Virus record (IMG/VR): IMGVR_UViG_3300037067_015007
Span: 25,321-89,320 of that record
Source of the DNA: a virus
Taxonomy: Duplodnaviria; Caudoviricetes
Strand: one strand, 5' to 3'
DNA length: 64,000 bases
Shown: positions 8,839-49,416 of the stretch, piece by piece
Layout: every line of letters starts with the position of its first letter
Numbering within the stretch: the first letter of the stretch is position 1
The notes under the pieces: generated by a model
What the model saw: only the letters and a program-made list of their open reading frames with translations
What the model was told of the DNA's origin: nothing
Databases searched by the model: none
Translations under genes and position numbers: made by a program

Positions 8839-8910
8839 ATCTCAAAAAACGAAATAATCAACATTTTACATAAATAAAGGTGTCCAAGTACAAAGGAGGA
8901 TTTTATACAA

Positions 8911-38428: not shown

Positions 38429-39085
38429 ATGAACAGCAAAATGTTTTTAATTGAAAAGGGGAAATTCGTTGTGATTAGAGACAACAACGACAACGAAATC
38501 TCATTCAGTACGATAGAAGAGTTTAAAAAATTCTATCCTGAAATTGGGACTTTTATTGATAGTAAATGGTATGTTGACTATGAACCAAATCGATATTGTC
38601 ATTTTATTATCATAGATAATAATACAGAGAATATTTTTAAAACCAATCCGTTTGTTCAGGAATACGAACAGGCCATTGTCAATCTTCAAGTAATAATCGA
38701 CAGGAAAAATAACCCATATTACAACAAGACCTTAGAAGAGGCTAAAGCAATTGCCATTACTGACTTAAAATCAAATACCCGTAGTTATATCAATCAACAT
38801 ATGCCTGATTGGAAACAGTTCCGTTGGAATCAGTTTATGCAAATTTATGAAAAAGTTAAAAAGAATGAAACACTAACAGATTTAGAAACGGCTGTTTATA
38901 ATGATTTCCCTGATACAGAAACAGGAGAAACGGCGAAATCTTGTTATGATGATTGCCAAACCGCATTCAATTGGAACCTAATCTGTATCAAAGAGAACAA
39001 CAAAGCGGAAAAATTAATTCAAAAAACTACCACAATTGAGGAAATAAAGACAATAATCCCCGCATATCCTGTTTGGCCTTTGTAA
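38429..39085 (+). CDS. putative tail fibre assembly/chaperone protein
   Basis: Follows the fibre tip; KTLEEAKAIAITDLK helical domain; terminal YPVWP. Confidence 0.5.
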   Translation: MNSKMFLIEKGKFVVIRDNNDNEISFSTIEEFKKFYPEIGTFIDSKWYVDYEPNRYCHFIIIDNNTENIFKTNPFVQEYEQAIVNLQVIIDRKNNPYYNKTLEEAKAIAITDLKSNTRSYINQHMPDWKQFRWNQFMQIYEKVKKNETLTDLETAVYNDFPDTETGETAKSCYDDCQTAFNWNLICIKENNKAEKLIQKTTTIEEIKTIIPAYPVWPL

Positions 39086-39123
39086 GTTTTTCGTCAATTT
39101 CAATAAATAGTATTGGTGAAAGA

Positions 39124-40239
39124 ATGTTAAACGATAAACAACGAGCAGAATTCTTTTTCAATATTCATGACACAAACAGTATAATCACAGGCGGCAGGAC
39201 TACAGGTGGTTATTATTGTCCTGTCAATTGCATATTCTGTATGTGTAAAGGGGATAATCCTGATATTAATTCCATGATTCCTTTCATTGAAATGGATGAG
39301 TTAAAAGAAGGATTGCGGTTCATTGATTGGAAAAACAAAAAGGTTAACCTTGGTGATGGAATTACAAAATTGTCTGCTGAAGCCTTCGCTCACCCTAGAA
39401 TCTATGATATCTTGGAATACACTTGTAAAAATCTTCCTGACCACCAAGTAAGCATCATGACTACGGGTGTATTGATAAAAGAGGATAAAATAGAATTTTT
39501 AAATAGTTTGAAAAATCTATACATATCTATTTCTGTCAATACATTGCAGGAAAATGAACGCAAGAAAATAATGCCTCATCCTGAAACAGAAAAAATAAAA
39601 ACACTACTCAAAAGATTGAAAAGTGTCGGAGTGCAATTATTGGATATGGGGGATAATGAAATTCTGAAGGCTGATATTGAGGAACTGAAAAAAGTAAATA
39701 AGGCTGATAACTTTCAATTGAGAAGAATAGAACATTCAAAATATCATATTGATGAAGCCGTAACTCTGTCAAAACAAAGTATTGTGAACTATGATAAATC
39801 AGTTCATTACATTCAGGATAATTTTCCCGATGCTACTTATTGGACTCCTTATTTGAGGTACGATTTACGAAATCCTAGAAAAATGCAAGGAGTTTTTACA
39901 TATCTTGCAGAGATATGTGATTTTTTGAATAAGAACAAAACCAAAAAATATTTGTTTTGTGCGGCAGAATCGTCTTATGAATTGTGGGATATTTGGCTTA
40001 GAGGATTCAAAAATGTAAAGGTTAAACTTATCAAAAATGATACATACGGGGGTTCGGTAACTGTAGCAGGATTATTGACATTTGATGATATGAGTAAAAC
40101 ATTGAAACAAACAGACCTTTCGAATATACAAGGATTATTACTACCCCGTATAATGTTAAATAAAGCATTTGCTGATTTGAATGGTAAAACGATTGTGGAT
40201 TTTCATAAAGAAATGGGAGTTTATCCCGTAATAGTGTGA
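39124..40239 (+). CDS. radical SAM protein with DUF512-like C-terminus
   Basis: YCPVNCIFC (CX3CX2C); C-terminal NDTYGGSVTVAGLLT...LLLPRIML. Start moved to ATG 39124. Confidence 0.75.
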   Translation: MLNDKQRAEFFFNIHDTNSIITGGRTTGGYYCPVNCIFCMCKGDNPDINSMIPFIEMDELKEGLRFIDWKNKKVNLGDGITKLSAEAFAHPRIYDILEYTCKNLPDHQVSIMTTGVLIKEDKIEFLNSLKNLYISISVNTLQENERKKIMPHPETEKIKTLLKRLKSVGVQLLDMGDNEILKADIEELKKVNKADNFQLRRIEHSKYHIDEAVTLSKQSIVNYDKSVHYIQDNFPDATYWTPYLRYDLRNPRKMQGVFTYLAEICDFLNKNKTKKYLFCAAESSYELWDIWLRGFKNVKVKLIKNDTYGGSVTVAGLLTFDDMSKTLKQTDLSNIQGLLLPRIMLNKAFADLNGKTIVDFHKEMGVYPVIV

Positions 40240-40279: not shown

Positions 40280-41668
40280 ATGGACAAAATGTATTTTATG
40301 TCGAGTGATATGTTTACTATGACTGCACCTACACAAAAATTTGTAACATGGGACGCTGAAAAAGGCACATGGGTTTTAAATGAAGAGCGTTGGTTTAACT
40401 ATTGCGCTTTAGATATGGCGAACCGTGGTGTGAATATGTTTCGTTGGTTAGGTTGGAGCGTATGGCCTAATTGGACTGACCCGAATGGGTACAAGACCAA
40501 TCTCACACCTTTCATTCAAGTTTCAGATGGTGTGTTTGACCTCACGAAACGCAATGACAAGTATTGGGAAATTGCGGAAAAAATGATTCGGATTATGAAT
40601 TATCCTTCGCAAACAGAAGGAAATACGGCTCCTGGTATTACGCTTTGGATTGACCTTTTCTATCAGTACACAAATAACGCCGATGACCAAAAGTATTCAC
40701 CTTGGCGCAATAACGTTCAAGGAACCAAAAATCTTTACGACATCGAGAACCGTCAGTACGCATTGGCATATATGTTGGAATGGTTCAAACTCGCAAAGGA
40801 AAAAGGTCTAAAGATTGTTTTCGGAATGGGTAATGAAATGACGGCAGAAAGCCTTGACTTTTGTTATTTCGTGTTGGATACAATGGACCAGCAAAGAATT
40901 TGGCCTCACGCTTGGGCAATCTGTCCTGATATTCCTTCAAACGGCAACGACCTTTTCAAGAAACTTCCAGGTTATATTTATGATAGAGGTTTATTCATGT
41001 GGCATCCGCTACGTCAAGACCCCGCAGACAGATGGGATACGAGTATCATTCGTCCGACCCACGGCTGTTGCGGTTGCGTGAACAACCAAGGTGTGAACGT
41101 ATTTGAACAGGCTATGGATTATTGGGCTGTTCATCCTATCCGTTGGCAAGTGAGTGATGACGGTTGCATGGGTGGTTCTACACCACGTCCAGGCGTTGAC
41201 CAATGGACACAGATGGTAACTCGTATCTGCACCTATCGTGGAACAGAAGCCTTGACGAAAGTTTGGAACGGTATTGAAATGCCAATTATGGGTATTGAAC
41301 ATCTTCCTGATGATGAACCTTGGGATGATTGTAGAGAAGAACAACTCAAAATCTTTGAGGCAATGGCGGCTCCTTATGAACTGTATGTTGCCCCATTGGA
41401 GAACAAGGGAAAGTGGACTGTTCCTTATGTGAAACCCGAATGTGAAGTGGGACAGAGCAAAACAATAACCTGTTATGATGGTTCGGTTATCATAACCCAT
41501 ACTTGTGAAAATGGAAAATGGAAAGAAACAGGTAATACTTGTCCTACCCCGCCTGACCAAAAATGTTCCTGTTTTTACTATATAAATTGGAACGACAAAT
41601 TATTTGGAATTCCAAATTTTATCAAATGTATCACAGGAAAGATAGATAAATATTGTAAAAATAAATAA
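40280..41668 (+). CDS. glycoside-hydrolase-like TIM-barrel protein with Cys-rich tail
   Basis: GVNMFRW, FGMGNE (GH-A clan-like NE motif), GIEH; Trp-rich; TAAATA and AAGGAGG upstream. Confidence 0.45.
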   Translation: MDKMYFMSSDMFTMTAPTQKFVTWDAEKGTWVLNEERWFNYCALDMANRGVNMFRWLGWSVWPNWTDPNGYKTNLTPFIQVSDGVFDLTKRNDKYWEIAEKMIRIMNYPSQTEGNTAPGITLWIDLFYQYTNNADDQKYSPWRNNVQGTKNLYDIENRQYALAYMLEWFKLAKEKGLKIVFGMGNEMTAESLDFCYFVLDTMDQQRIWPHAWAICPDIPSNGNDLFKKLPGYIYDRGLFMWHPLRQDPADRWDTSIIRPTHGCCGCVNNQGVNVFEQAMDYWAVHPIRWQVSDDGCMGGSTPRPGVDQWTQMVTRICTYRGTEALTKVWNGIEMPIMGIEHLPDDEPWDDCREEQLKIFEAMAAPYELYVAPLENKGKWTVPYVKPECEVGQSKTITCYDGSVIITHTCENGKWKETGNTCPTPPDQKCSCFYYINWNDKLFGIPNFIKCITGKIDKYCKNK

Positions 41669-41676
41669 TAAAACAC

Positions 41677-41772
41677 TAAATAATAGTGTAGGAACAAGGT
41701 TCGCTACCCTTCTAAAAGGCCACACTCTTTTGGATTACCTACACTAAAATTCAACTTGTGTGGAGGCTGAAA
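41677..41772 (+). ncRNA. endonuclease-leader structured RNA, copy 5
   Basis: P1 TAGTGTAGG/CCTACACTA; P3 TCTAAAAG/CTTTTGGA; loop CCACAC pairs with GTGTGG (41758-41763). Confidence 0.75.
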
Positions 41773-42351
41773 ATGAAAAGAAAATTTAATTCAGAGGAAG
41801 AAAGGAGATTAGCAAAGAACGAGCGGGAAAGACGATATTATGAAAAAAATGATAAGGAAGTAAGATTGTTAATTTGTAAAAAATATCGTGAAAAGAATAA
41901 AGAAATATTAAAAATGAAAAGACGAGAATATTATCAAAAGCACAAAGAAGAATTCAAATCATATGCAAAAAATTATAATAAAAATCATAAAGAAGAAAGA
42001 AATATATATTATAATAACAGAATAAAAACAGATATAAATTTTAAACTCTCTTGTGGTTTACGATGTAGATTGAATAAAGCCCTCAGAGGAAATCAAAAAT
42101 CAGGTTCAGCAGTTCAAGACCTAGGTTGTTCCATCCCCGAATTTAAATTATATTTAAAATCTAAATGGAAAGACGGAATGAATTGGGATAACTATGGATT
42201 TTATGGATGGCATATAGACCATATTATACCTTTAGATTTTTACGACCTTCAAAATAGAGAAGAATTCTTAAAAGCCTGTCATTATACAAATCTTCAGCCA
42301 TTGTGGGCAGAGGAAAATATAACAAAGGGTAATAAAATAGTAATAAAATGA
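41773..42351 (+). CDS. HNH homing endonuclease
   Basis: GWHIDHIIPL...ACHYTNLQPLWAEEN. Confidence 0.9.
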   Translation: MKRKFNSEEERRLAKNERERRYYEKNDKEVRLLICKKYREKNKEILKMKRREYYQKHKEEFKSYAKNYNKNHKEERNIYYNNRIKTDINFKLSCGLRCRLNKALRGNQKSGSAVQDLGCSIPEFKLYLKSKWKDGMNWDNYGFYGWHIDHIIPLDFYDLQNREEFLKACHYTNLQPLWAEENITKGNKIVIK

Positions 42352-42518
42352 ATACAATAATAAAAAGTTCAATGTCAGTAGCGGGGGAAATTTTTACATC
42401 GGGTTATTGTAATCTGAATTGCTCCTATTGTTATATTGAGAAAACAGATTATCTTAAAAAACTCCATCAAGATATCATCAAGAAAATTCAGACAGGGGAC
42501 ATTATTTGGAATACCTAA
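42348..42518 (+). pseudogene. truncated divergent copy of the radical SAM N-terminus fused to a copy of the 40280 gene's 3' end
   Basis: MNTIIKSSMSVAGEIFTSGYCNLNCSYCYIEKT...IQTG matches the start of 43277; 42498-42600 nearly duplicates 41594-41700. Confidence 0.8.
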
Positions 42519-42672: not shown

Positions 42673-43290
42673 ATGAATCAAGGAAAAGAAGGTATTGTGT
42701 ACATAGCAACGAATTTGATTAATAATAAACAATATATTGGGCAAACGGTAAGAAAATTAAAATATCGTTTATATGAACATATTCATCACCCTGATAATAG
42801 TTATCCTTTTAGTAAAGCATTGAGAAAATATGGTATTGAAAATTTTAAAATTGTTCCTTTTTCTTGTCTTGAAAAAGATTTGGATTGGACAGAAAGTTTT
42901 CTAATAAAAAAGTTAAATACACTAAAACCCAACGGTTATAATCTTGAAAGTGGTGGGAATAATCAAAAACATCTTCACGAAGTAACAAAAAACAAAATAT
43001 CCAAAAAAACAAAAGGGGAAAATAATCCTCGATATGGAATAAAGTTAGAAGAAGAAACAAAAGAAAAAATTAGAGAAAGTATTAATGAATGGTATAAAAC
43101 ACACGAAGCACCGAGTAAGGGTATTTTAAAAACAAAAGAAGAAAAAATAAAACTATCTGAAGCAAGAAAAAAATATTATGAAATACACGAATCACCATTT
43201 AAAGGTAAACGACATTCAAAAGAAGCAAAAGAAAAAATGAGAATATCAAGATTAGAATATTTAAAAAGGATTAAAAATGAGCGTAATTAA
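42673..43290 (+). CDS. GIY-YIG homing endonuclease
   Basis: GIVYIATNLINNKQYIGQT; PNGYNLESGG. Confidence 0.9.
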   Translation: MNQGKEGIVYIATNLINNKQYIGQTVRKLKYRLYEHIHHPDNSYPFSKALRKYGIENFKIVPFSCLEKDLDWTESFLIKKLNTLKPNGYNLESGGNNQKHLHEVTKNKISKKTKGENNPRYGIKLEEETKEKIRESINEWYKTHEAPSKGILKTKEEKIKLSEARKKYYEIHESPFKGKRHSKEAKEKMRISRLEYLKRIKNERN

Positions 43291-44674
43291 ATCAGAATTA
43301 TCCGTTGCAGGAGAAATTTTCACTTCTGCTTTATGTGCAGGGGCCAATTGTAATTATTGTTATATAGAAAAAACGCCACATCTTCAAGAATTACAAAAAA
43401 ATCTGATAAAAAAATTACAAAGTGGTGAATATATTGGGGAATTAAAAAAATTGTACGGTGAAAAATTAACTGCTTTAGCCTTTTGGGGTGCGGAACCTAC
43501 CACCACCCTTAATTATATAACGGAAAAAATTCCCGAACTTCTAAATACTTTCCCGACCTTGACAGAGATTTCATTCTCTACAAATATGTTATCAGACCCA
43601 ACAATAATAAAAAATTTTATTATGAAGGTGATGGAACAAAACAGAAACATAATGATAAAGATACAATGCTCAATTGATGGGCCTCCAGAGGTAACGGATT
43701 TAAATAGAAGTCAAGGTGCGACTGCAAAAATTAAAGGGAATTTTTTAAAATTATTACAGCAATTACAAAGTGAAAATTTAAAAAATACAAAAATAAAATT
43801 CCATTTTAAACCAACTTGGTCAATTGAAAATTTAAATTGGCTTAATGAAGAGGAATCTAGGTATCGGTATTATTTCTTTTTCTTTGATGAGTGGATAGAC
43901 CTTGCAAAAGGAATCAATAGGCAAAAAAATATTTATTTAGACTTAAATGGTGTTCCATCAATGTCTGTTCCTGGCACATATAGTTCAGAAGATGGTAAGA
44001 TATGGGCAAAAACCTGTTGGCATTTAAAGCGTTTATCTAATGAACAAAGACAACGACCCTTTTTAAAACATCAAAATGCTTCATTCAATACATATACTTA
44101 CAGATTGATACGGCTGTTTGATTTCAGCAGAGAATTCTTTTCAAAGCCTGATATGTTTTCCTGTTCAGCAGGACGTTCACAAAATCAATTAGGGGAACTT
44201 CAAGACCTTCATTTATGTCATCGTTCTCTTTTTATGAATCATTCCGAATATGAAAAAGAATTAAGGAACGAAGGAAATTGGGATTTTCATTTACAACAGA
44301 AAGACAGAATAAAATTGGTGAAGGAAAAACATATTGTAGATATCAATAATCAATTAGAAGTTGATAGAGCATTTTATACTTGGTCTTGTTTTCAGACTTT
44401 TTCTAAACATAAAACAGCGACAAGTTTAGCACTTATCAAAGAGTTAGTATATAGTAAACAAATAAGTGAAGATTTTGCAGATGAAAACCTTGCCACTTTG
44501 TTCGCCATATTCATTAACTACGGTTTAGGCTGCCCTATGGAAAATATTTTACAAACAGGAAGTTTGTTTACTAGTCCCATTTCGCTATTTAGACTGTTTG
44601 GGGCATCTGATAATAATTTACCTTGTGCGTTCCAAATTATATTAGAGGAAGCAAGAAGTGAAATTAATAAATAA
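43277..44674 (+). CDS. radical SAM protein, atypical CX4CX2C motif, degenerate SPASM-like tail
   Basis: ALCAGANCNYCY; AFWGAEPT; FSTN; CSIDGP; later CSAG...LCHR...GCP. Confidence 0.75.
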   Translation: MSVIKSELSVAGEIFTSALCAGANCNYCYIEKTPHLQELQKNLIKKLQSGEYIGELKKLYGEKLTALAFWGAEPTTTLNYITEKIPELLNTFPTLTEISFSTNMLSDPTIIKNFIMKVMEQNRNIMIKIQCSIDGPPEVTDLNRSQGATAKIKGNFLKLLQQLQSENLKNTKIKFHFKPTWSIENLNWLNEEESRYRYYFFFFDEWIDLAKGINRQKNIYLDLNGVPSMSVPGTYSSEDGKIWAKTCWHLKRLSNEQRQRPFLKHQNASFNTYTYRLIRLFDFSREFFSKPDMFSCSAGRSQNQLGELQDLHLCHRSLFMNHSEYEKELRNEGNWDFHLQQKDRIKLVKEKHIVDINNQLEVDRAFYTWSCFQTFSKHKTATSLALIKELVYSKQISEDFADENLATLFAIFINYGLGCPMENILQTGSLFTSPISLFRLFGASDNNLPCAFQIILEEARSEINK

Positions 44675-44767
44675 TAGTGAAAGACAGGGGTTGCAACCCT
44701 TTCTAAAATGCTTATCCTATTTTAGATTATTTCACTATTTTTATTTTGACTTGGATAAGGAGACAAA
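44668..44767 (+). ncRNA. endonuclease-leader structured RNA, copy 7
   Basis: P1 ATAGTGAAA/TTTCACTAT (compensatory changes relative to other copies); P2 GGGTTGCAACCC; loop CTTATCC pairs with GGATAAG (44753-44759). Confidence 0.75.
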
Positions 44768-45451
44768 ATGAGTCAAGAAGTTGGAACAATTTATGTGGCT
44801 ACCAATTTAGTGAATGGAAAGCAGTATGTGGGGCAAACAACAATAACATTAAAAGAGCGGTGGTATCAACATAAAAACGGTACTAATTGCCCACTTATTC
44901 ATAGAGCAATTCAAAAATACGGTATGGAAAAATTTAAGATTATTTCCTTTCCTTGTCTTGAAGAAGATTTGGATTGGACAGAAGGGTTTTTACAAAAAGA
45001 ATTTAATACTATCGCACCAAATGGATACAATTTAATATTGAATGAAGCACAACACAGACGACATAACGAGAGTTCAAAAGAAAAAATGAAAAAAAATCAC
45101 GCAGATTTTTCAGGTAAAAATCATCCTCAATATGGATTAAGAGGAGAAAAAAGTGTAAATTTTGGTAGAGTTTTCTCACAAGAAGAAAAAGAAAAGGTAA
45201 AAGAGGGATTATTAAAATATTTTCAAAAGTTCCCGCAAGCACATAAAGGTAAAAATAATCCTATGTTTAATAAAGAACACAGATTAGATACCAAAGAAAA
45301 AATGAAATTATCAAAAATAGGAAAATACTTTGGTAAAAATAATCCCAATTTTGGTCATAAGTGGACACAAGAACAGAAAGATGCACAAAGTAATAAAATG
45401 AAATTAATAAAACAAAAGAGGCAAAATGAACACATTTCAGAAACAGAATAA
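44768..45451 (+). CDS. GIY-YIG homing endonuclease
   Basis: GTIYVATNLVNGKQYVGQT; PNGYNL; NUMOD3-like repeats. Confidence 0.9.
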   Translation: MSQEVGTIYVATNLVNGKQYVGQTTITLKERWYQHKNGTNCPLIHRAIQKYGMEKFKIISFPCLEEDLDWTEGFLQKEFNTIAPNGYNLILNEAQHRRHNESSKEKMKKNHADFSGKNHPQYGLRGEKSVNFGRVFSQEEKEKVKEGLLKYFQKFPQAHKGKNNPMFNKEHRLDTKEKMKLSKIGKYFGKNNPNFGHKWTQEQKDAQSNKMKLIKQKRQNEHISETE

Positions 45452-46763
45452 TGAATTGCTAAAAAATTTTTTATCAAGGACGTTCTTTAAATCGTGGCGT
45501 AGTTGGCGAGAAAGAAAAACAGATAAAGGCTATGCTTTACAAAATTATACAGGGTTTGAATTTGACCTTTCCGATGCTTGTGAATTAAAATGCTCCTATT
45601 GTTATGTTGTTAAATTTGGCGATAAATATTATCCTAAGCCTGAACTAAAAAATCCTGCTACGGTATTTAAAAATGCTAAAATTATAATGGATTGGTTATG
45701 GGAAAATCAATATCGACCTAAATTAGAATTGTTTGGCGGCGATGCATTTAATCAAAATGTAGGATTCGATATTGTTGAGGAATCCCTTAAAAGAGCTGAA
45801 GCAGGTCAACCTATTTGTACAGAAATTGTAGTGCCAACGAATATGAATTTCTTATTCAGCGAGAATAGAACTAGACTCGTTGAAGATTTTATAGAAAGAG
45901 GAAGAAAGATAGATTGCCCGTTAATTGTAAGTGCATCTGTTGATGGAATTTTTATGGAAGATAATAGGTCATTTCGTAGTGAAAGAGTACGGGACGAAAT
46001 ATTTTATGATAAACTTTTTAAGTTTGCTAGAAAATATAGAATAGGCTTTCACCCGATGATTTATTCAAACAACATCGAGAAATGGTGGGATAATTTTATG
46101 TGGTTCCAAAAGAAATTTAAAGAATATGGGTTCCCGCCCAATAATCTCTATTTGCTTGAAGTACGAAATGCGGAATGGACAGAAGAACAATCAAAACATC
46201 TTTATGAATTTATGCGTAAATTATCAAGTTGGGTAGGTGAACATTTGAAAAAAATGGATAACCCTGTTCATCAATTATTTCATAACCATTGGGCCTTTAA
46301 TACTTTATCAAGCCCCTTCTCAACGACAGGAAGGGGGCTAGGATGCTCATTACAATCAGGTATCTATTTACGAATGGGAGACTTAACTGCATTTCCTTGT
46401 CATCGTTTGATGTATGATTATTTTAAAATGTTTAGATTCCTAACTAAAGACGATAAGATTTTTGATGTGGAAGCAATAAGTCCCGAATTACATATAGCAA
46501 CAAATGCTAGTGATGGGGATAATTTTCCAATGTGTGAACAATGCGTTATAAATTCAATGTGTAGCCACGGATGTTTAGGAGCGCAATTTGAAAATACAGG
46601 TGATATGTTTGTTCCAATACCTTCAGCATGCCGTATGGAATTTTATAGAATAAAGGGTATTATTGATGGTTTTCAGGAAAGCGGGATGCTAGATATGATT
46701 TTGGGTGCCGTAAACAAAAATAAAATAAACAAGGTTTTGAGGGTTATGGAGGAAATAAAATGA
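45426..46763 (+). CDS. radical SAM/SPASM-domain peptide-maturase-like protein
   Basis: ACELKCSYC (CX3CX2C); LFGGDA; VPTN; ASVDG; GCS...FPCHRL...CEQC...MCSHGC...SAC (SPASM Cys pattern). Confidence 0.85.
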   Translation: MNTFQKQNNELLKNFLSRTFFKSWRSWRERKTDKGYALQNYTGFEFDLSDACELKCSYCYVVKFGDKYYPKPELKNPATVFKNAKIIMDWLWENQYRPKLELFGGDAFNQNVGFDIVEESLKRAEAGQPICTEIVVPTNMNFLFSENRTRLVEDFIERGRKIDCPLIVSASVDGIFMEDNRSFRSERVRDEIFYDKLFKFARKYRIGFHPMIYSNNIEKWWDNFMWFQKKFKEYGFPPNNLYLLEVRNAEWTEEQSKHLYEFMRKLSSWVGEHLKKMDNPVHQLFHNHWAFNTLSSPFSTTGRGLGCSLQSGIYLRMGDLTAFPCHRLMYDYFKMFRFLTKDDKIFDVEAISPELHIATNASDGDNFPMCEQCVINSMCSHGCLGAQFENTGDMFVPIPSACRMEFYRIKGIIDGFQESGMLDMILGAVNKNKINKVLRVMEEIK

Positions 46764-47236
46764 AAATTGATGAATTCATCAAACAATTGAAATGTTATTT
46801 GGAAAGTTCTGATGCTACCTATTTACTCAGTAAAAGAAAGGAACTGTTTATTCAGGTAATTAATAAAGTCAAAGAAGATGTTATAATCTGTGAAAAAAAT
46901 GAATGGAAGGAAACTTCAACCATTCCTATTATTGAAAGTTTAGAATATCTATTAGCAGTTCTTAATGAACAACCTATTTCAATAGAGGCATCAAAATTTA
47001 TTGAATCTTATTCTACATTGTTATACAATCATAATGAGAATACCAATAAATCTGAAAAAGTAAATTTATTGACCCAAACAGTTAATAGATTTATCACCCT
47101 CAGAATGACCACAATGGAATTAATTCAAAACCTAAAAATAGTATCAAAAATGGTCAAAGAATTAAGCCATGTAGGGTTTCAACCAACGCAACTTTCGAAA
47201 CATTATTTGGCTTCTTTTGATAAACAAAATCAATAA
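46760..47236 (+). CDS. helical hypothetical protein coupled to the rSAM/SPASM gene
   Basis: ATGA overlap with 45426-46763; 158 aa. Confidence 0.6.
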   Translation: MKIDEFIKQLKCYLESSDATYLLSKRKELFIQVINKVKEDVIICEKNEWKETSTIPIIESLEYLLAVLNEQPISIEASKFIESYSTLLYNHNENTNKSEKVNLLTQTVNRFITLRMTTMELIQNLKIVSKMVKELSHVGFQPTQLSKHYLASFDKQNQ

Positions 47237-47257
47237 ATAGTATAGAGGAGTTTTGAT

Positions 47258-47881
47258 ATGGGATTTGTTTGGACAACAATGCCTGTTACTGCTGGAACAG
47301 ATAAACCAACAGCGGTAAGGATTGCCGAAATTCGGGCCAATACCAATTTAGATAGAGGTTATGTTTCTCTTGGTAATTATTCATGGGTGAAAACTATTAA
47401 TATAGGGACAAAAATCGAGGCAAGTGAATATACTGAATTAAAAACAGCTTTAGACCAAGCGTGGGATGCAAACATCTGCTCAGCCCATCGAACCACACAC
47501 GAAACATCAGTCCAATCGACTCACGATGCCGCCGTTCGAGCAACGCATTATACTACATATCAAGCAACAGATAATAAAACCGTTTTAGGAAGTCATTTAG
47601 AAACAGATAGGGCAACCCACGAGGCAACCGTTCAAAATTCTCACAACACAACAGATAATGCGACCAACAACACATCACACGATACAGACTTACACGGAAC
47701 CCATAAAGCCACTTATTACACTTCAGATAATTACCCGCATTATGACACTTTTTATGATGGGCACGATAATACATATCAGGGTAGTAACAATACCACTCTT
47801 GATACGGGTGATAATATAACAGTTAAAGCCTCTTATGATTTATCAGTTCAATCAACAGATTTTTATATAAAAGGTGGATAA
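47258..47881 (+). CDS. His-rich octapeptide-repeat protein 1
   Basis: N-terminal domain, then C, then about 16 octamers with S/T every 4th residue and His every 8th (THETSVQS THDAAVRA THYTTYQA...). TAAATA and GAGGAG upstream. Confidence 0.7.
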   Translation: MGFVWTTMPVTAGTDKPTAVRIAEIRANTNLDRGYVSLGNYSWVKTINIGTKIEASEYTELKTALDQAWDANICSAHRTTHETSVQSTHDAAVRATHYTTYQATDNKTVLGSHLETDRATHEATVQNSHNTTDNATNNTSHDTDLHGTHKATYYTSDNYPHYDTFYDGHDNTYQGSNNTTLDTGDNITVKASYDLSVQSTDFYIKGG

Positions 47882-47883
47882 GG

Positions 47884-48402
47884 ATGAGTTACGATAAAGT
47901 AGGCGGTTGTAAGGATTGGACACAAACCATTGCGACAGGTGGCGATATTGAAGCAGTCGATACCAATGAATTTATGACCAATATAGATTGGATAAAAGAT
48001 AATTTGGCTTGTTTAAGTCATAATTCAATTGTTAGGGCAACACATTATTCAGCGGATGATTTAGGACATAACGGAACTTATAAAGCAACCCATTACTCAA
48101 CTTACCAAGTTACAAATGATTCAGCAGAAAAAGCATCACATAATTCTATCTATAAAACAACAAATTATACAGGCGACCTAAATTCACATTATGACCAAAA
48201 CTATAATAACCATGATATAGGTTATGATGCTACATATAATGCAACTCACGAAAATGCAGTAGAATCATATTATTTAGCAGAACACAATTTATCAATTAAT
48301 TGGACTAATAATACTTCTCATTATCCTGGTGATGATGCTTATGAAAATGTAACTAATAATAGCACCGTTAATAATCCATTTTGTCCTGCTTTTGCATCTT
48401 AA
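47884..48402 (+). CDS. His-rich octapeptide-repeat protein 2
   Basis: N-terminal WTQTIATG.DIEA...EF..NID, then C, then SHNSIVRA THYSADDL GHNGTYKA THYSTYQV... Confidence 0.7.
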   Translation: MSYDKVGGCKDWTQTIATGGDIEAVDTNEFMTNIDWIKDNLACLSHNSIVRATHYSADDLGHNGTYKATHYSTYQVTNDSAEKASHNSIYKTTNYTGDLNSHYDQNYNNHDIGYDATYNATHENAVESYYLAEHNLSINWTNNTSHYPGDDAYENVTNNSTVNNPFCPAFAS

Positions 48403-48429: not shown

Positions 48430-49416
48430 TTGAAAATGAAAGTTTTTTTAATTAATCTCAATGTCGGTTCAGGAATAGAAACAGTCGGGGATACCATCAA
48501 AAAATGGATACAGGAACTACCTGTAGAATTAGTAGAATATAAAGACCAAACGAAAGAAGGCTCAACAATGTCTCGTTTGTTGAAAGAACACCCTGATGTT
48601 ATTGTGATAAACGAGATTTTTCCTAGAATCATCTCTCCTGTTCTATTTTATAAATTAACATTTCCGAACACCAAAGTAATTATGTTTGCTCATTCACAAA
48701 AATATTTTATTACTCCCAATGAACCTGATAATCAGCACGTTTTATTGACGGATTTACTCAAATTGACAGACGTTGTTTATACTTTAGATGCTAGTAAAGA
48801 AAAAATATTACAGATAGAAAATCTAAAGTTCTGCCCCTCTGACCCTGAAATATTTCACAATGAAATACCTTGGAAGGACAGACCTAAGTTTTTTTGCGTA
48901 ATGGGTGGAATTTATCCTCTGAAAGTTCATCCTGATTTTTTAAATTTGGCACATTGTATTCCTGCTGAAATTGATGTATATGGTGAAGTGTCGGAAAAAT
49001 TTACCACGCCTGAGTATCGTATGGCATTTGCTCTAGCCGCTTCAAAAAATTTAGAACATAAAAAAAGAATACCACAAACAGAAGTAGGAAAAATACTAAA
49101 CCAATACAAATACATCGTTTTTCCACATCACGGTTCTGAAACTTTTTGTATGATGCTCCAACAGGCAATTATGTGTGGAACCATTCCTATTGTTTTGAAT
49201 GATGATTCAGGAAAAGATTTTAACCCTAGTTGGATTGAATGGACTGATAATATGTGCTATGTAACCAACAACATTAAAACCTTTATTGAAAATCTTACAC
49301 TCATAGTAAAAGACGAAACGGACTACACTCCCGTTTCACAGTTCATTTCAAAAGAGATAACAAAACGTTTCGGATATTATGATTTTAAAAAACATTTTCA
49401 AGAACAAATCAAATAG
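48430..49416 (+). CDS. GT-B fold glycosyltransferase (GT4-like)
   Basis: C-terminal YKYIVFPHHGSETFCMMLQQAIMCGTIPIV resembles the E-x-F-G-x5-EA-x3-G-x-P motif; N-terminal PDVIVIN. Confidence 0.75.
   Translation: MKMKVFLINLNVGSGIETVGDTIKKWIQELPVELVEYKDQTKEGSTMSRLLKEHPDVIVINEIFPRIISPVLFYKLTFPNTKVIMFAHSQKYFITPNEPDNQHVLLTDLLKLTDVVYTLDASKEKILQIENLKFCPSDPEIFHNEIPWKDRPKFFCVMGGIYPLKVHPDFLNLAHCIPAEIDVYGEVSEKFTTPEYRMAFALAASKNLEHKKRIPQTEVGKILNQYKYIVFPHHGSETFCMMLQQAIMCGTIPIVLNDDSGKDFNPSWIEWTDNMCYVTNNIKTFIENLTLIVKDETDYTPVSQFISKEITKRFGYYDFKKHFQEQIK

Follow-up and report, generated by a model that had tools for sequence, protein, structure and literature searches.

We describe a five-gene module in a 64,000-nucleotide stretch of viral DNA (the window), which forms part of an 89-kb IMG/VR virus record with a CheckV completeness of 39%, and we consider it probable that this module is expressed late in infection, and that it both produces and alters two structural proteins of the phage that form rods. 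The module comprises two radical S-adenosylmethionine (SAM) enzymes, rSAM1 and rSAM2, a small partner protein and two repeat proteins, A and B, and its five open reading frames lie where a first-pass annotation of the DNA had placed them. The phage is a myovirus encoding a tail sheath, a baseplate hub and several collagen-like (Ser–Gly–aromatic) fibres, and in the window the genes for sheath, baseplate and collagen-like fibres precede the cluster, in agreement with the location at the tail-fibre module that had been assigned to it. Judged from the sequences and their context, the product is likely to be a virion rod, which the module probably modifies chemically.

The association of the enzymes with the repeat proteins is seen in their conserved neighbourhood. 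Relatives of rSAM2, of which there are at least 177 in a set of 5.8 billion proteins, were used to fetch 63 loci from IMG/VR, JGI metagenomes and GTDB genomes, which were scanned with iterated hidden Markov models (HMMs); with the window these make 64 loci, or 58 after the removal of six duplicates. In virtually all loci, rSAM1 and rSAM2 are neighbours; 60 of 64 loci have the small gene, and 55 of 64 encode the pair of repeat proteins, corresponding to 49 of the 58 non-redundant loci, so that the relatives of the radical SAM enzymes do occur mostly together with the repeat proteins, as had been anticipated. The five-gene set is held together at rSAM2 identities of 33–68%. Among the nine non-redundant loci without the pair, five are on contigs that start in or at rSAM1, another is fragmentary, and the remaining three have a different repeat protein directly upstream, which is of the HxsA type in loci L056 and L059 and carries a GFNSGNY repeat in L041. 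The latter locus has the most distant rSAM pair (28% identity to rSAM2), preceded by a 201-residue protein ending in GFNSGNY-type heptad repeats (L041:6903–7508), and the enzyme pair appears to have been re-targeted there to a different repeat.

Three gene orders were observed. The commonest is A–B–rSAM1–rSAM2–small, the clade of the window has rSAM1–rSAM2–small–A–B, and five loci (L016, L017, L019, L020 and L026) have the split order rSAM1–small–A–B–rSAM2–small, in which each enzyme has its own small partner. Three further contigs were sampled independently through the small-protein family: L064 contains the full set, L066 contains the rSAM pair, the small gene and an A-type gene, and the third is too short. 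The proposal that the two radical SAM enzymes, the small protein and the repeat proteins belong together thus holds in about 50 divergent loci; there is good support for a single functional unit and for its substrate class, and gene context strongly supports the enzyme–substrate link. No conserved protease, exporter or transporter gene was found across the 58 loci, and neither the 40280-type protein nor the DUF512-type radical SAM enzyme that accompany the module in the window is conserved. A glycosyltransferase adjoins the small gene or the repeat pair in 13 of the 58 non-redundant loci and is possibly an O-glycosylase of the Ser/Thr-rich rods. The contigs with phage-type loci from GTDB (L042–L063) reach 238 kb, and most of these loci were binned under the name of candidate phyla radiation (CPR) bacteria or DPANN archaea, probably through mis-binning of phage contigs, unless the bins hint at the host range.

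Motif and family evidence agree with the initial assignment of the two enzymes, the first as a radical SAM protein and the second as a radical SAM/SPASM protein. In rSAM2, the CX3CX2C motif (C52, C56 and C59) is present in 54 of 54 relatives, and the seven-Cys SPASM pattern, which was tested as CX9-15GX4C ... CX2CX5CX3C ... C and binds two auxiliary clusters, is complete (C307, C325, C370, C373, C379, C383 and C402); all ten cysteines are invariant across 24 relatives, down to 34% identity. The SPASM model TIGR04085 (cut-off 27 bits) gives 20.7 bits for the rSAM2 of the window and 28.1 bits for its L056 orthologue. The best NCBIfam matches of rSAM2, all far under cut-off, are PapB (NF047865; E 2.6e-14, near full length), an ScfB-related model, QhpD and the SCIFF maturase, and the nearest solved structures are 8vpo and 5wgg/5why (E about 1e-9), with 5wgg being the thioether-forming maturase CteB. 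For rSAM1, the Pfam Radical_SAM match is weak (E 0.066), the NCBIfam matches are to rSAM/SPASM peptide maturases (E 7e-8 to 1e-4, all far under the family cut-offs), and homology to rSAM2 is limited to the N-terminal SAM-binding half (hhalign profile–profile comparison, E 7e-6). Conserved in the rSAM1 family are C21, C25 and C28 and, in the C-terminal part, just C295, C313 and C418; these last three do not make up the SPASM motif and would suffice for one auxiliary cluster of a twitch-like kind, short of a full SPASM domain. rSAM2 holds every cysteine required for the SAM cluster and two auxiliary clusters, and rSAM1 those for the SAM cluster and one auxiliary site. The nearest characterised relatives of both enzymes are peptide or protein maturases. 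In two contigs, L037 (166 kb) and L038 (135 kb), rSAM1 and rSAM2 are split into several short open reading frames under translation table 11, and these contigs may use another genetic code or be degraded.

The small gene overlaps the stop of rSAM2 by 4 nucleotides (46760 versus 46763), and because of this overlap the two genes are regarded as translationally coupled, as had been noted at the outset. AlphaFold2, run with a 48-sequence alignment, gave a five-helix model with a mean predicted local distance difference test (pLDDT) score of 92; this model has no significant fold match in the PDB, and the protein belongs to no Pfam, NCBIfam or PHROG family. Its family shares the C-terminal motif PPAFELS(R/K)HYL. 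An assignment as an HxsD-like protein, prompted by a look-alike C-terminal motif, was rejected, with 0 of 48 family members matching TIGR03976 or NF038315 at E ≤ 1. When all 1.84 billion representatives were scanned with HMMER, 562 family members reached E ≤ 1e-3 and 458 of these reached E ≤ 1e-10; all are representatives at 50% identity from uncultured material, and the best 150 of the 562 are stand-alone proteins of about 145–270 residues. With 562 representatives of this marker protein, the module is no one-off.

The C-terminal regions of A and B, of about 130 residues each, consist of four- and eight-residue repeats, and the periodicity of His and Ser/Thr that had been noticed in them is far beyond chance when the autocorrelation is compared with 2000 shuffles: for His at lag 8, z is 5.8 in A (47258) and 4.5 in B (47884), and for Ser/Thr in A it is 5.6–6.3 at lags 4, 8, 12 and 16 (6.2 at lag 4). 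Across 59 relatives, the tetrad has H/Y/V/D at position a, N/D at position b, S/T/A at position c and T/G at position d, and the octad arises from the tendency of His to alternate with Tyr or Val at position a. The residues S, D, T, Y, N, G, V and H together make up 78% of the cores, which are acidic (D 12%, K+R 3%) and rich in Ser, Thr, Tyr and Asn. The N-terminal module, MxFxW...G..I...E(I/L)(R/K)xNxD...DNxxC, of about 35 residues, has one copy in type B and two copies in type A, and it usually closes with a single junction Cys (residue 74 in A and residue 43 in B of the window), although some B-type relatives are without any Cys. A and B of the window have no NCBIfam match, none of the three protein families specific to the module has a Pfam, NCBIfam or PHROG model, and a search of the ESM Atlas gave sub-threshold leads only, such as a viral cluster with an rSAM-target Cxxx-repeat family (score 0.78). 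A word-based search with protein A gave one relative only; the other relatives were reached via rSAM2. The L066 contig requires TGA as a sense codon, and in its A-type protein (L066:3680–4180) one TGA coincides exactly with the Trp that is conserved in the second N-terminal module, a position that speaks for TGA being read as Trp in this phage.

The first-pass annotation had taken the His-x-Ser/Thr triplet as the defining target of the enzymes, and this claim is not supported. Protein A of the window aligns over its full length with protein A of L016 (E 3e-15) with the octads in register, and the His residues of the window align with Asp, Gln or Glu. Since position a is H/Y/V/D family-wide, His was rejected as a universal modified residue; from these alignments, it is one option at a polar position and no conserved target, and a serial His cyclophane is excluded as the common chemistry because relatives place Asp or Val there.

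That the repeat proteins are fibre-like, as had also been suggested, is upheld by several observations. With 52.8 bits for DUF2345 and 41.2 bits for Gp5_trimer_C, protein A of L016 exceeds both Pfam cut-offs, and it matches the β-helix part of the solved Gp5/Vgr protein 9gtr (E 3.6e-4); the triple β-helix of gp5 has a period of eight residues per repeat. Three relatives have large extra N-terminal regions (L021:5983–7188, L060:2517–4193 and L012:5299–6816). Those of L021 and L060 are Laminin_G_3 lectin domains, in or before the N-terminal module and in one case between the two modules, and that of L012 has no family match; a lectin embedded in the N-terminal region makes a discarded leader less likely. 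The first repeat gene is preceded in 12 loci, at a distance of 1–14 nucleotides, by a fibre gene whose product has a shared C-terminal domain; one such protein matches tail-fibre PHROGs. Finally, A and B have cores of matched length within a locus when residues are counted from the junction Cys: over 23 A/B pairs, some from loci that are close relatives, r is 0.93, 14 of the 23 pairs agree within 6 residues over a range of 43–251, and none of 10000 shuffles (0/10000) gave this result. In the window, the core of B has 130 residues and that of A has 134. The matched lengths fit a co-assembly of the two proteins in register.

Several points weigh against a modified rod built from A and B. The window's own proteins match no Pfam or PDB β-helix model, and the profile of A finds no solved chain. 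In the AlphaFold2 monomer of A, the N-terminal part is moderately confident (pLDDT 83–89), and the core is helical at low confidence (pLDDT 40–55); the helical core prediction was disregarded because of this low confidence. The matched lengths could also be caused by gene conversion between paralogous repeats or by kinship of the loci. The core has no invariant residue type that would point to a target atom. The cluster motif of the rSAM1 of the window is CAGANCNYC, that is, CX4CX2C with a one-residue insertion, versus CX3CX2C in 47 of 49 relatives and in the remnant of a second allele upstream, and with this non-canonical spacing the enzyme may be impaired. Moreover, neither the region nor rSAM2 nor repeat protein A gave a relative in DNA and protein searches of 50,697 records of isolated phages, and the module is thus found in no cultured phage of that set.

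A and B could instead be ordinary, unmodified trimeric fibres or needles, with at most a His/Asp metal ladder, the radical SAM pair and its partner acting on something else, such as a sugar, a cofactor or the neighbouring fibre, and being adjacent merely as late genes. In T4, the gp5-like fold does without modification; a glycosyltransferase frequently lies next to the module, and the clade of the window has a DUF512-type radical SAM enzyme and the 40280 protein. However, it is the rSAM–repeat linkage that survives three rearrangements and the divergence noted above, whereas the glycosyltransferase, the 40280-type protein and the DUF512-type enzyme are not conserved; in addition, the split-order loci give each rSAM its own small partner flanking A–B, the trio of rSAM1, rSAM2 and small protein again stands beside a repeat protein in CPR bacteria, which have no phage late module, and the characterised enzymes nearest to the pair act on peptides or proteins. 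We consider this explanation improbable.

The trio in CPR bacteria leads to the relation of the module with the bacterial His-Xaa-Ser (Hxs) system, to which the first-pass annotation had likened it. HxsB and HxsC are reported to mature HxsA, with HxsC binding HxsD and HxsC–HxsD forming the core complex that acts on HxsA; the HXS system has been reported to be an anti-phage system that blocks phage DNA entry via a repeat protein matured by radical SAM enzymes (PMC13128918). The HXS complex described in that work is a precedent for a radical SAM enzyme and a small partner acting on a repeat protein. Homology of the window proteins to HxsA–D, for which the models TIGR03976–TIGR03979 had been named as the check, was not found. 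The HxsB model TIGR03978 (cut-off 370 bits) has no match to rSAM1 or rSAM2 at E ≤ 0.1 and none in the whole 89-kb record, although it does recognise the HxsB proteins of L056 and L059, the HxsC model TIGR03977 has no match to the window proteins at E ≤ 0.1 nor to the L056 orthologues at E ≤ 0.01, and the HxsA-type models (TIGR03979, NF038309 and NF038313) have no match to A or B of the window. Membership of the Hxs families was therefore rejected for the window proteins.

The part of the analogy that stands concerns the loci of cellular bacteria. In three cellular CPR contigs (L056, L059 and L063), the orthologues of the trio follow a repeat protein with an HxsA3/A4-type N-terminus. L056 and L059 also encode HxsB (514 and 476 bits) and an HxsD-like protein (70 and 61 bits; cut-off 41) above cut-off. 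There the HxsD-like gene comes first and HxsB second; L056 alone then has a gene for a membrane protein, and the HxsA3/A4-like repeat protein and the orthologues of rSAM1, rSAM2 and the small protein follow. The HxsD-like gene is separate from the small-protein orthologue. The Hxs models were applied to L056 and L059, whose repeat proteins score on those for HxsA3/A4; L063 resembles these two loci in layout. Further along in L059, seven more radical-SAM-like genes, six of about 300 residues and one of 404 residues, come after the Hxs-plus-trio locus (L059:10879–18737). L056 presumably encodes trigger factor, ClpP and pyrophosphatase, and L063 RNase HII and DNA polymerase III alpha, as recognised from the N-terminal sequences; L059 was counted as cellular because it is in a metagenome-assembled genome bin and has no phage genes, with no housekeeping gene seen there. 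In a quick, unrooted tree of rSAM2, the cellular copies are nested among the phage copies, which is compatible with exchange between phages and CPR bacteria, the direction not being given by an unrooted tree.

On these grounds, the module might be a phage counterpart of bacterial HXS, in which the matured repeat proteins would be non-virion effectors in the infected cell that exclude competitors at DNA entry or decoy or antagonise an HXS-type defence of the host. The presence of trio orthologues inside true variant Hxs loci of CPR bacteria, nested among phage rSAM2 copies, and the reported block of phage DNA entry by HXS (PMC13128918) both speak for it. However, neither the lysine-rich N-terminus nor the hydrophobic segment of the HxsA3/A4-type proteins of L056, L059 and L063 is present in the phage repeat proteins, which are acidic, not basic; their genes abut fibre genes, two relatives carry lectin fusions and one matches gp5/VgrG needle repeats, and in our judgement such a role has little probability. 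A classical ribosomally synthesised, post-translationally modified peptide (RiPP) system, in which the N-terminal leaders would be cleaved and the modified cores released as diffusible bacteriocin-like or signalling peptides, would suit the bipartite proteins with a conserved N-terminus and a hypervariable repeat core, the 75–100 residues of some relatives and the kinship of the enzymes with RiPP maturases, but is very improbable given the lack of a conserved protease or exporter, cores that reach about 330 residues, the lectin domains embedded in two N-terminal regions, the A/B pairing with matched lengths and the location in the fibre module.

For the modified virion rod, which we prefer, the following course can be proposed. 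The N-terminal module would dock each unfolded precursor on a complex of the radical SAM enzymes and the small partner, by analogy with HxsC–HxsD on HxsA, and rSAM1 and rSAM2 would then abstract hydrogen at periodic positions of the core, installing a repeated modification. Candidate chemistries are cross-links at position c (Ser/Thr), epimerisation, oxidation of Ser/Thr and a thioether at the junction Cys, no single one of which is likely. A and B would assemble in register into a triple β-helical rod like that of gp5/VgrG, carried close to the tail fibres; metal ligands along the axis of this rod may be provided by His, Asp or Asn at position a, and in some phages the glycosyltransferase would decorate the rod. 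A wider proposal, which we make tentatively and hold to be possible rather than likely, is that phages of anoxic habitats build a virion rod of two co-assembling proteins whose repeat cores a dedicated radical SAM pair modifies serially, and that these phages and CPR bacteria have exchanged the trio, which in the bacteria serves a system of the His-Xaa-Ser type.

Radical SAM/SPASM maturases have been described in the formation of bacterial peptide natural products and in a few cases of protein maturation, and our literature search found no paper on such a phage system nor on a radical SAM/SPASM maturase acting on a virus structural protein. If the wider proposal is correct, this would be the first radical SAM post-translational modification of a virus structural protein, with one maturation machinery on both sides of the phage–host conflict. 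If the role proposed for the module is correct, it would define a new substrate class of paired tetrad/octad rod proteins with a conserved docking module, and a new helical partner fold. It would also offer a testable route to enzymatically stapled or epimerised β-helical rods, and the link with Hxs loci provides a handle on the still undefined Hxs chemistry and on the trade of such machinery between phages and CPR bacteria.

The genes of the module and their neighbours in the window are listed in Table 1.

Table 1. Genes of the module and neighbouring features, in positions of the window
Feature	Position	Strand	Remarks
Third radical SAM gene	39073-40239		Radical_SAM E 4e-14, DUF512 E 7e-10; just upstream of 40280
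462-residue Cys-rich protein	40280-41668	+	No family match; called GH-like by the first-pass annotation
HNH-type endonuclease	41758-42351	+	Assignment is the reading of the first-pass annotation only
Remnant of second rSAM1 allele	42348-42518	+	First 56 codons; canonical CNLNCSYC; beside HNH gene
GIY-YIG/NUMOD3 homing endonuclease	42673-43290	+	Pfam GIY-YIG 4e-6, NUMOD3 6e-10; just upstream of rSAM1
rSAM1, 465 residues	43277-44674	+	Radical SAM enzyme, putatively with one auxiliary-cluster site
Second GIY-YIG/NUMOD3 homing endonuclease	44768-45451	+	Pfam; between rSAM1 and rSAM2
rSAM2, 445 residues	45426-46763	+	Radical SAM/SPASM enzyme
Small partner, 158 residues	46760-47236	+	Five-helix predicted protein
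Repeat protein A	47258-47881	+	Two-module recognition-like N-terminal domain (MxFxW...E(I/L)(R/K)xNxD...DxNxC), then about 16 octads
Repeat protein B	47884-48402	+	One-module N-terminal domain, then octad core
Family-1 glycosyltransferase	48430-49416	+	Pfam Glycos_transf_1 1.7e-7

The two GIY-YIG genes, which the first-pass annotation did not mention, are interleaved with the rSAM genes. The same module genes are found with zero endonucleases in L001 (92% rSAM2 identity, 223-kb contig) and L002 (68%, 169-kb contig), in which rSAM1 overlaps rSAM2 by 23 nucleotides, and because of their absence there the endonucleases are regarded as recent mobile passengers outside the system. The remnant at 42348–42518 scores as a radical SAM protein in the locus scan and matches the N-terminus of the endonuclease-free rSAM1 of L001 and L002; lying beside the HNH gene, and with the odd motif of the intact rSAM1, it looks like the footprint of an endonuclease-driven allele replacement. 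Relatives of the 40280-type protein are confined to the clade of the window (5 loci). Near-identical DNA occurs in landfill and groundwater metagenomes from several studies, with no RNA run listed.

TAAATA late-type promoters had been proposed for the cluster, and this stands in part: TAAATA is present 24 nucleotides upstream of 47258 and 33 nucleotides upstream of 40280 and before neither rSAM gene, and the T4 late-promoter octamer TATAAATA is not enriched (5 found versus 7.8 expected). TAAATA followed by an (A/G)TATAGAGGAG-like sequence precedes several late genes (window positions 8871, 25091, 32117, 40247 and 47234); this element is upstream of 6 of 44 starts versus 4.6% of random positions, and it may be a late promoter or leader of the phage, unlike the T4 octamer.

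Among known systems, the triceptide maturases (GrrM/OscB, XyeB, YhhB, FxsB and AmcB) share with the module weak N-terminal matches to rSAM1 (E 4e-6 to 2e-5) and the many [H/Y]-x-[S/T/A] triplets of the window cores, whereas the matches cover the SAM-binding half only, rSAM1 is without a full SPASM domain, and the aromatic position of the motif is taken in register by Asp, Gln or Val in relatives, with Asp and Val unable to form a cyclophane. Membership was rejected, the best score being 26 bits against a cut-off of 310 (TIGR04261) over the N-terminal 150 residues only. The thioether-forming maturases (PapB/freyrasin, CteB/SCIFF and QhpD) are the best matches of rSAM2, with the same SPASM architecture, and most phage substrates have a conserved Cys at the leader/core junction; however, rSAM2 reaches 53 bits against the PapB cut-off of 340, and the phage substrates have mostly this single Cys and no Cys repeat, and membership of the ranthipeptide/sactipeptide maturases (PapB and CteB) was rejected on both counts. 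The triple β-helix of T4 gp5 (C-terminal part) and VgrG resembles the repeat proteins in its eight-residue period, its phage tail context and the L016 protein A that passes both Pfam cut-offs, whereas the window proteins score below the models and have no oligonucleotide/oligosaccharide-binding (OB) fold or lysozyme part, and A and B are two distinct chains that co-occur with dedicated radical SAM enzymes, which gp5 and VgrG lack.

The Hxs system likewise has two radical SAM enzymes and a small partner beside a His/Ser-rich repeat substrate, and orthologues of the phage trio are physically within variant Hxs loci of CPR bacteria (HxsA3 NF038309, HxsA4 NF038313 and HxsD-like NF038315). Apart from the lack of Hxs model matches in the window and of HxsB in the record, the differences lie in the substrates and their setting: the phage proteins have another N-terminal module, no export signal and occur as a matched pair, with cores that are long, acidic and built of tetrads and octads where the Hxs substrate has five basic HxS repeats, and they are encoded in a phage fibre module, whereas the Hxs genes are found in a bacterial defence island.

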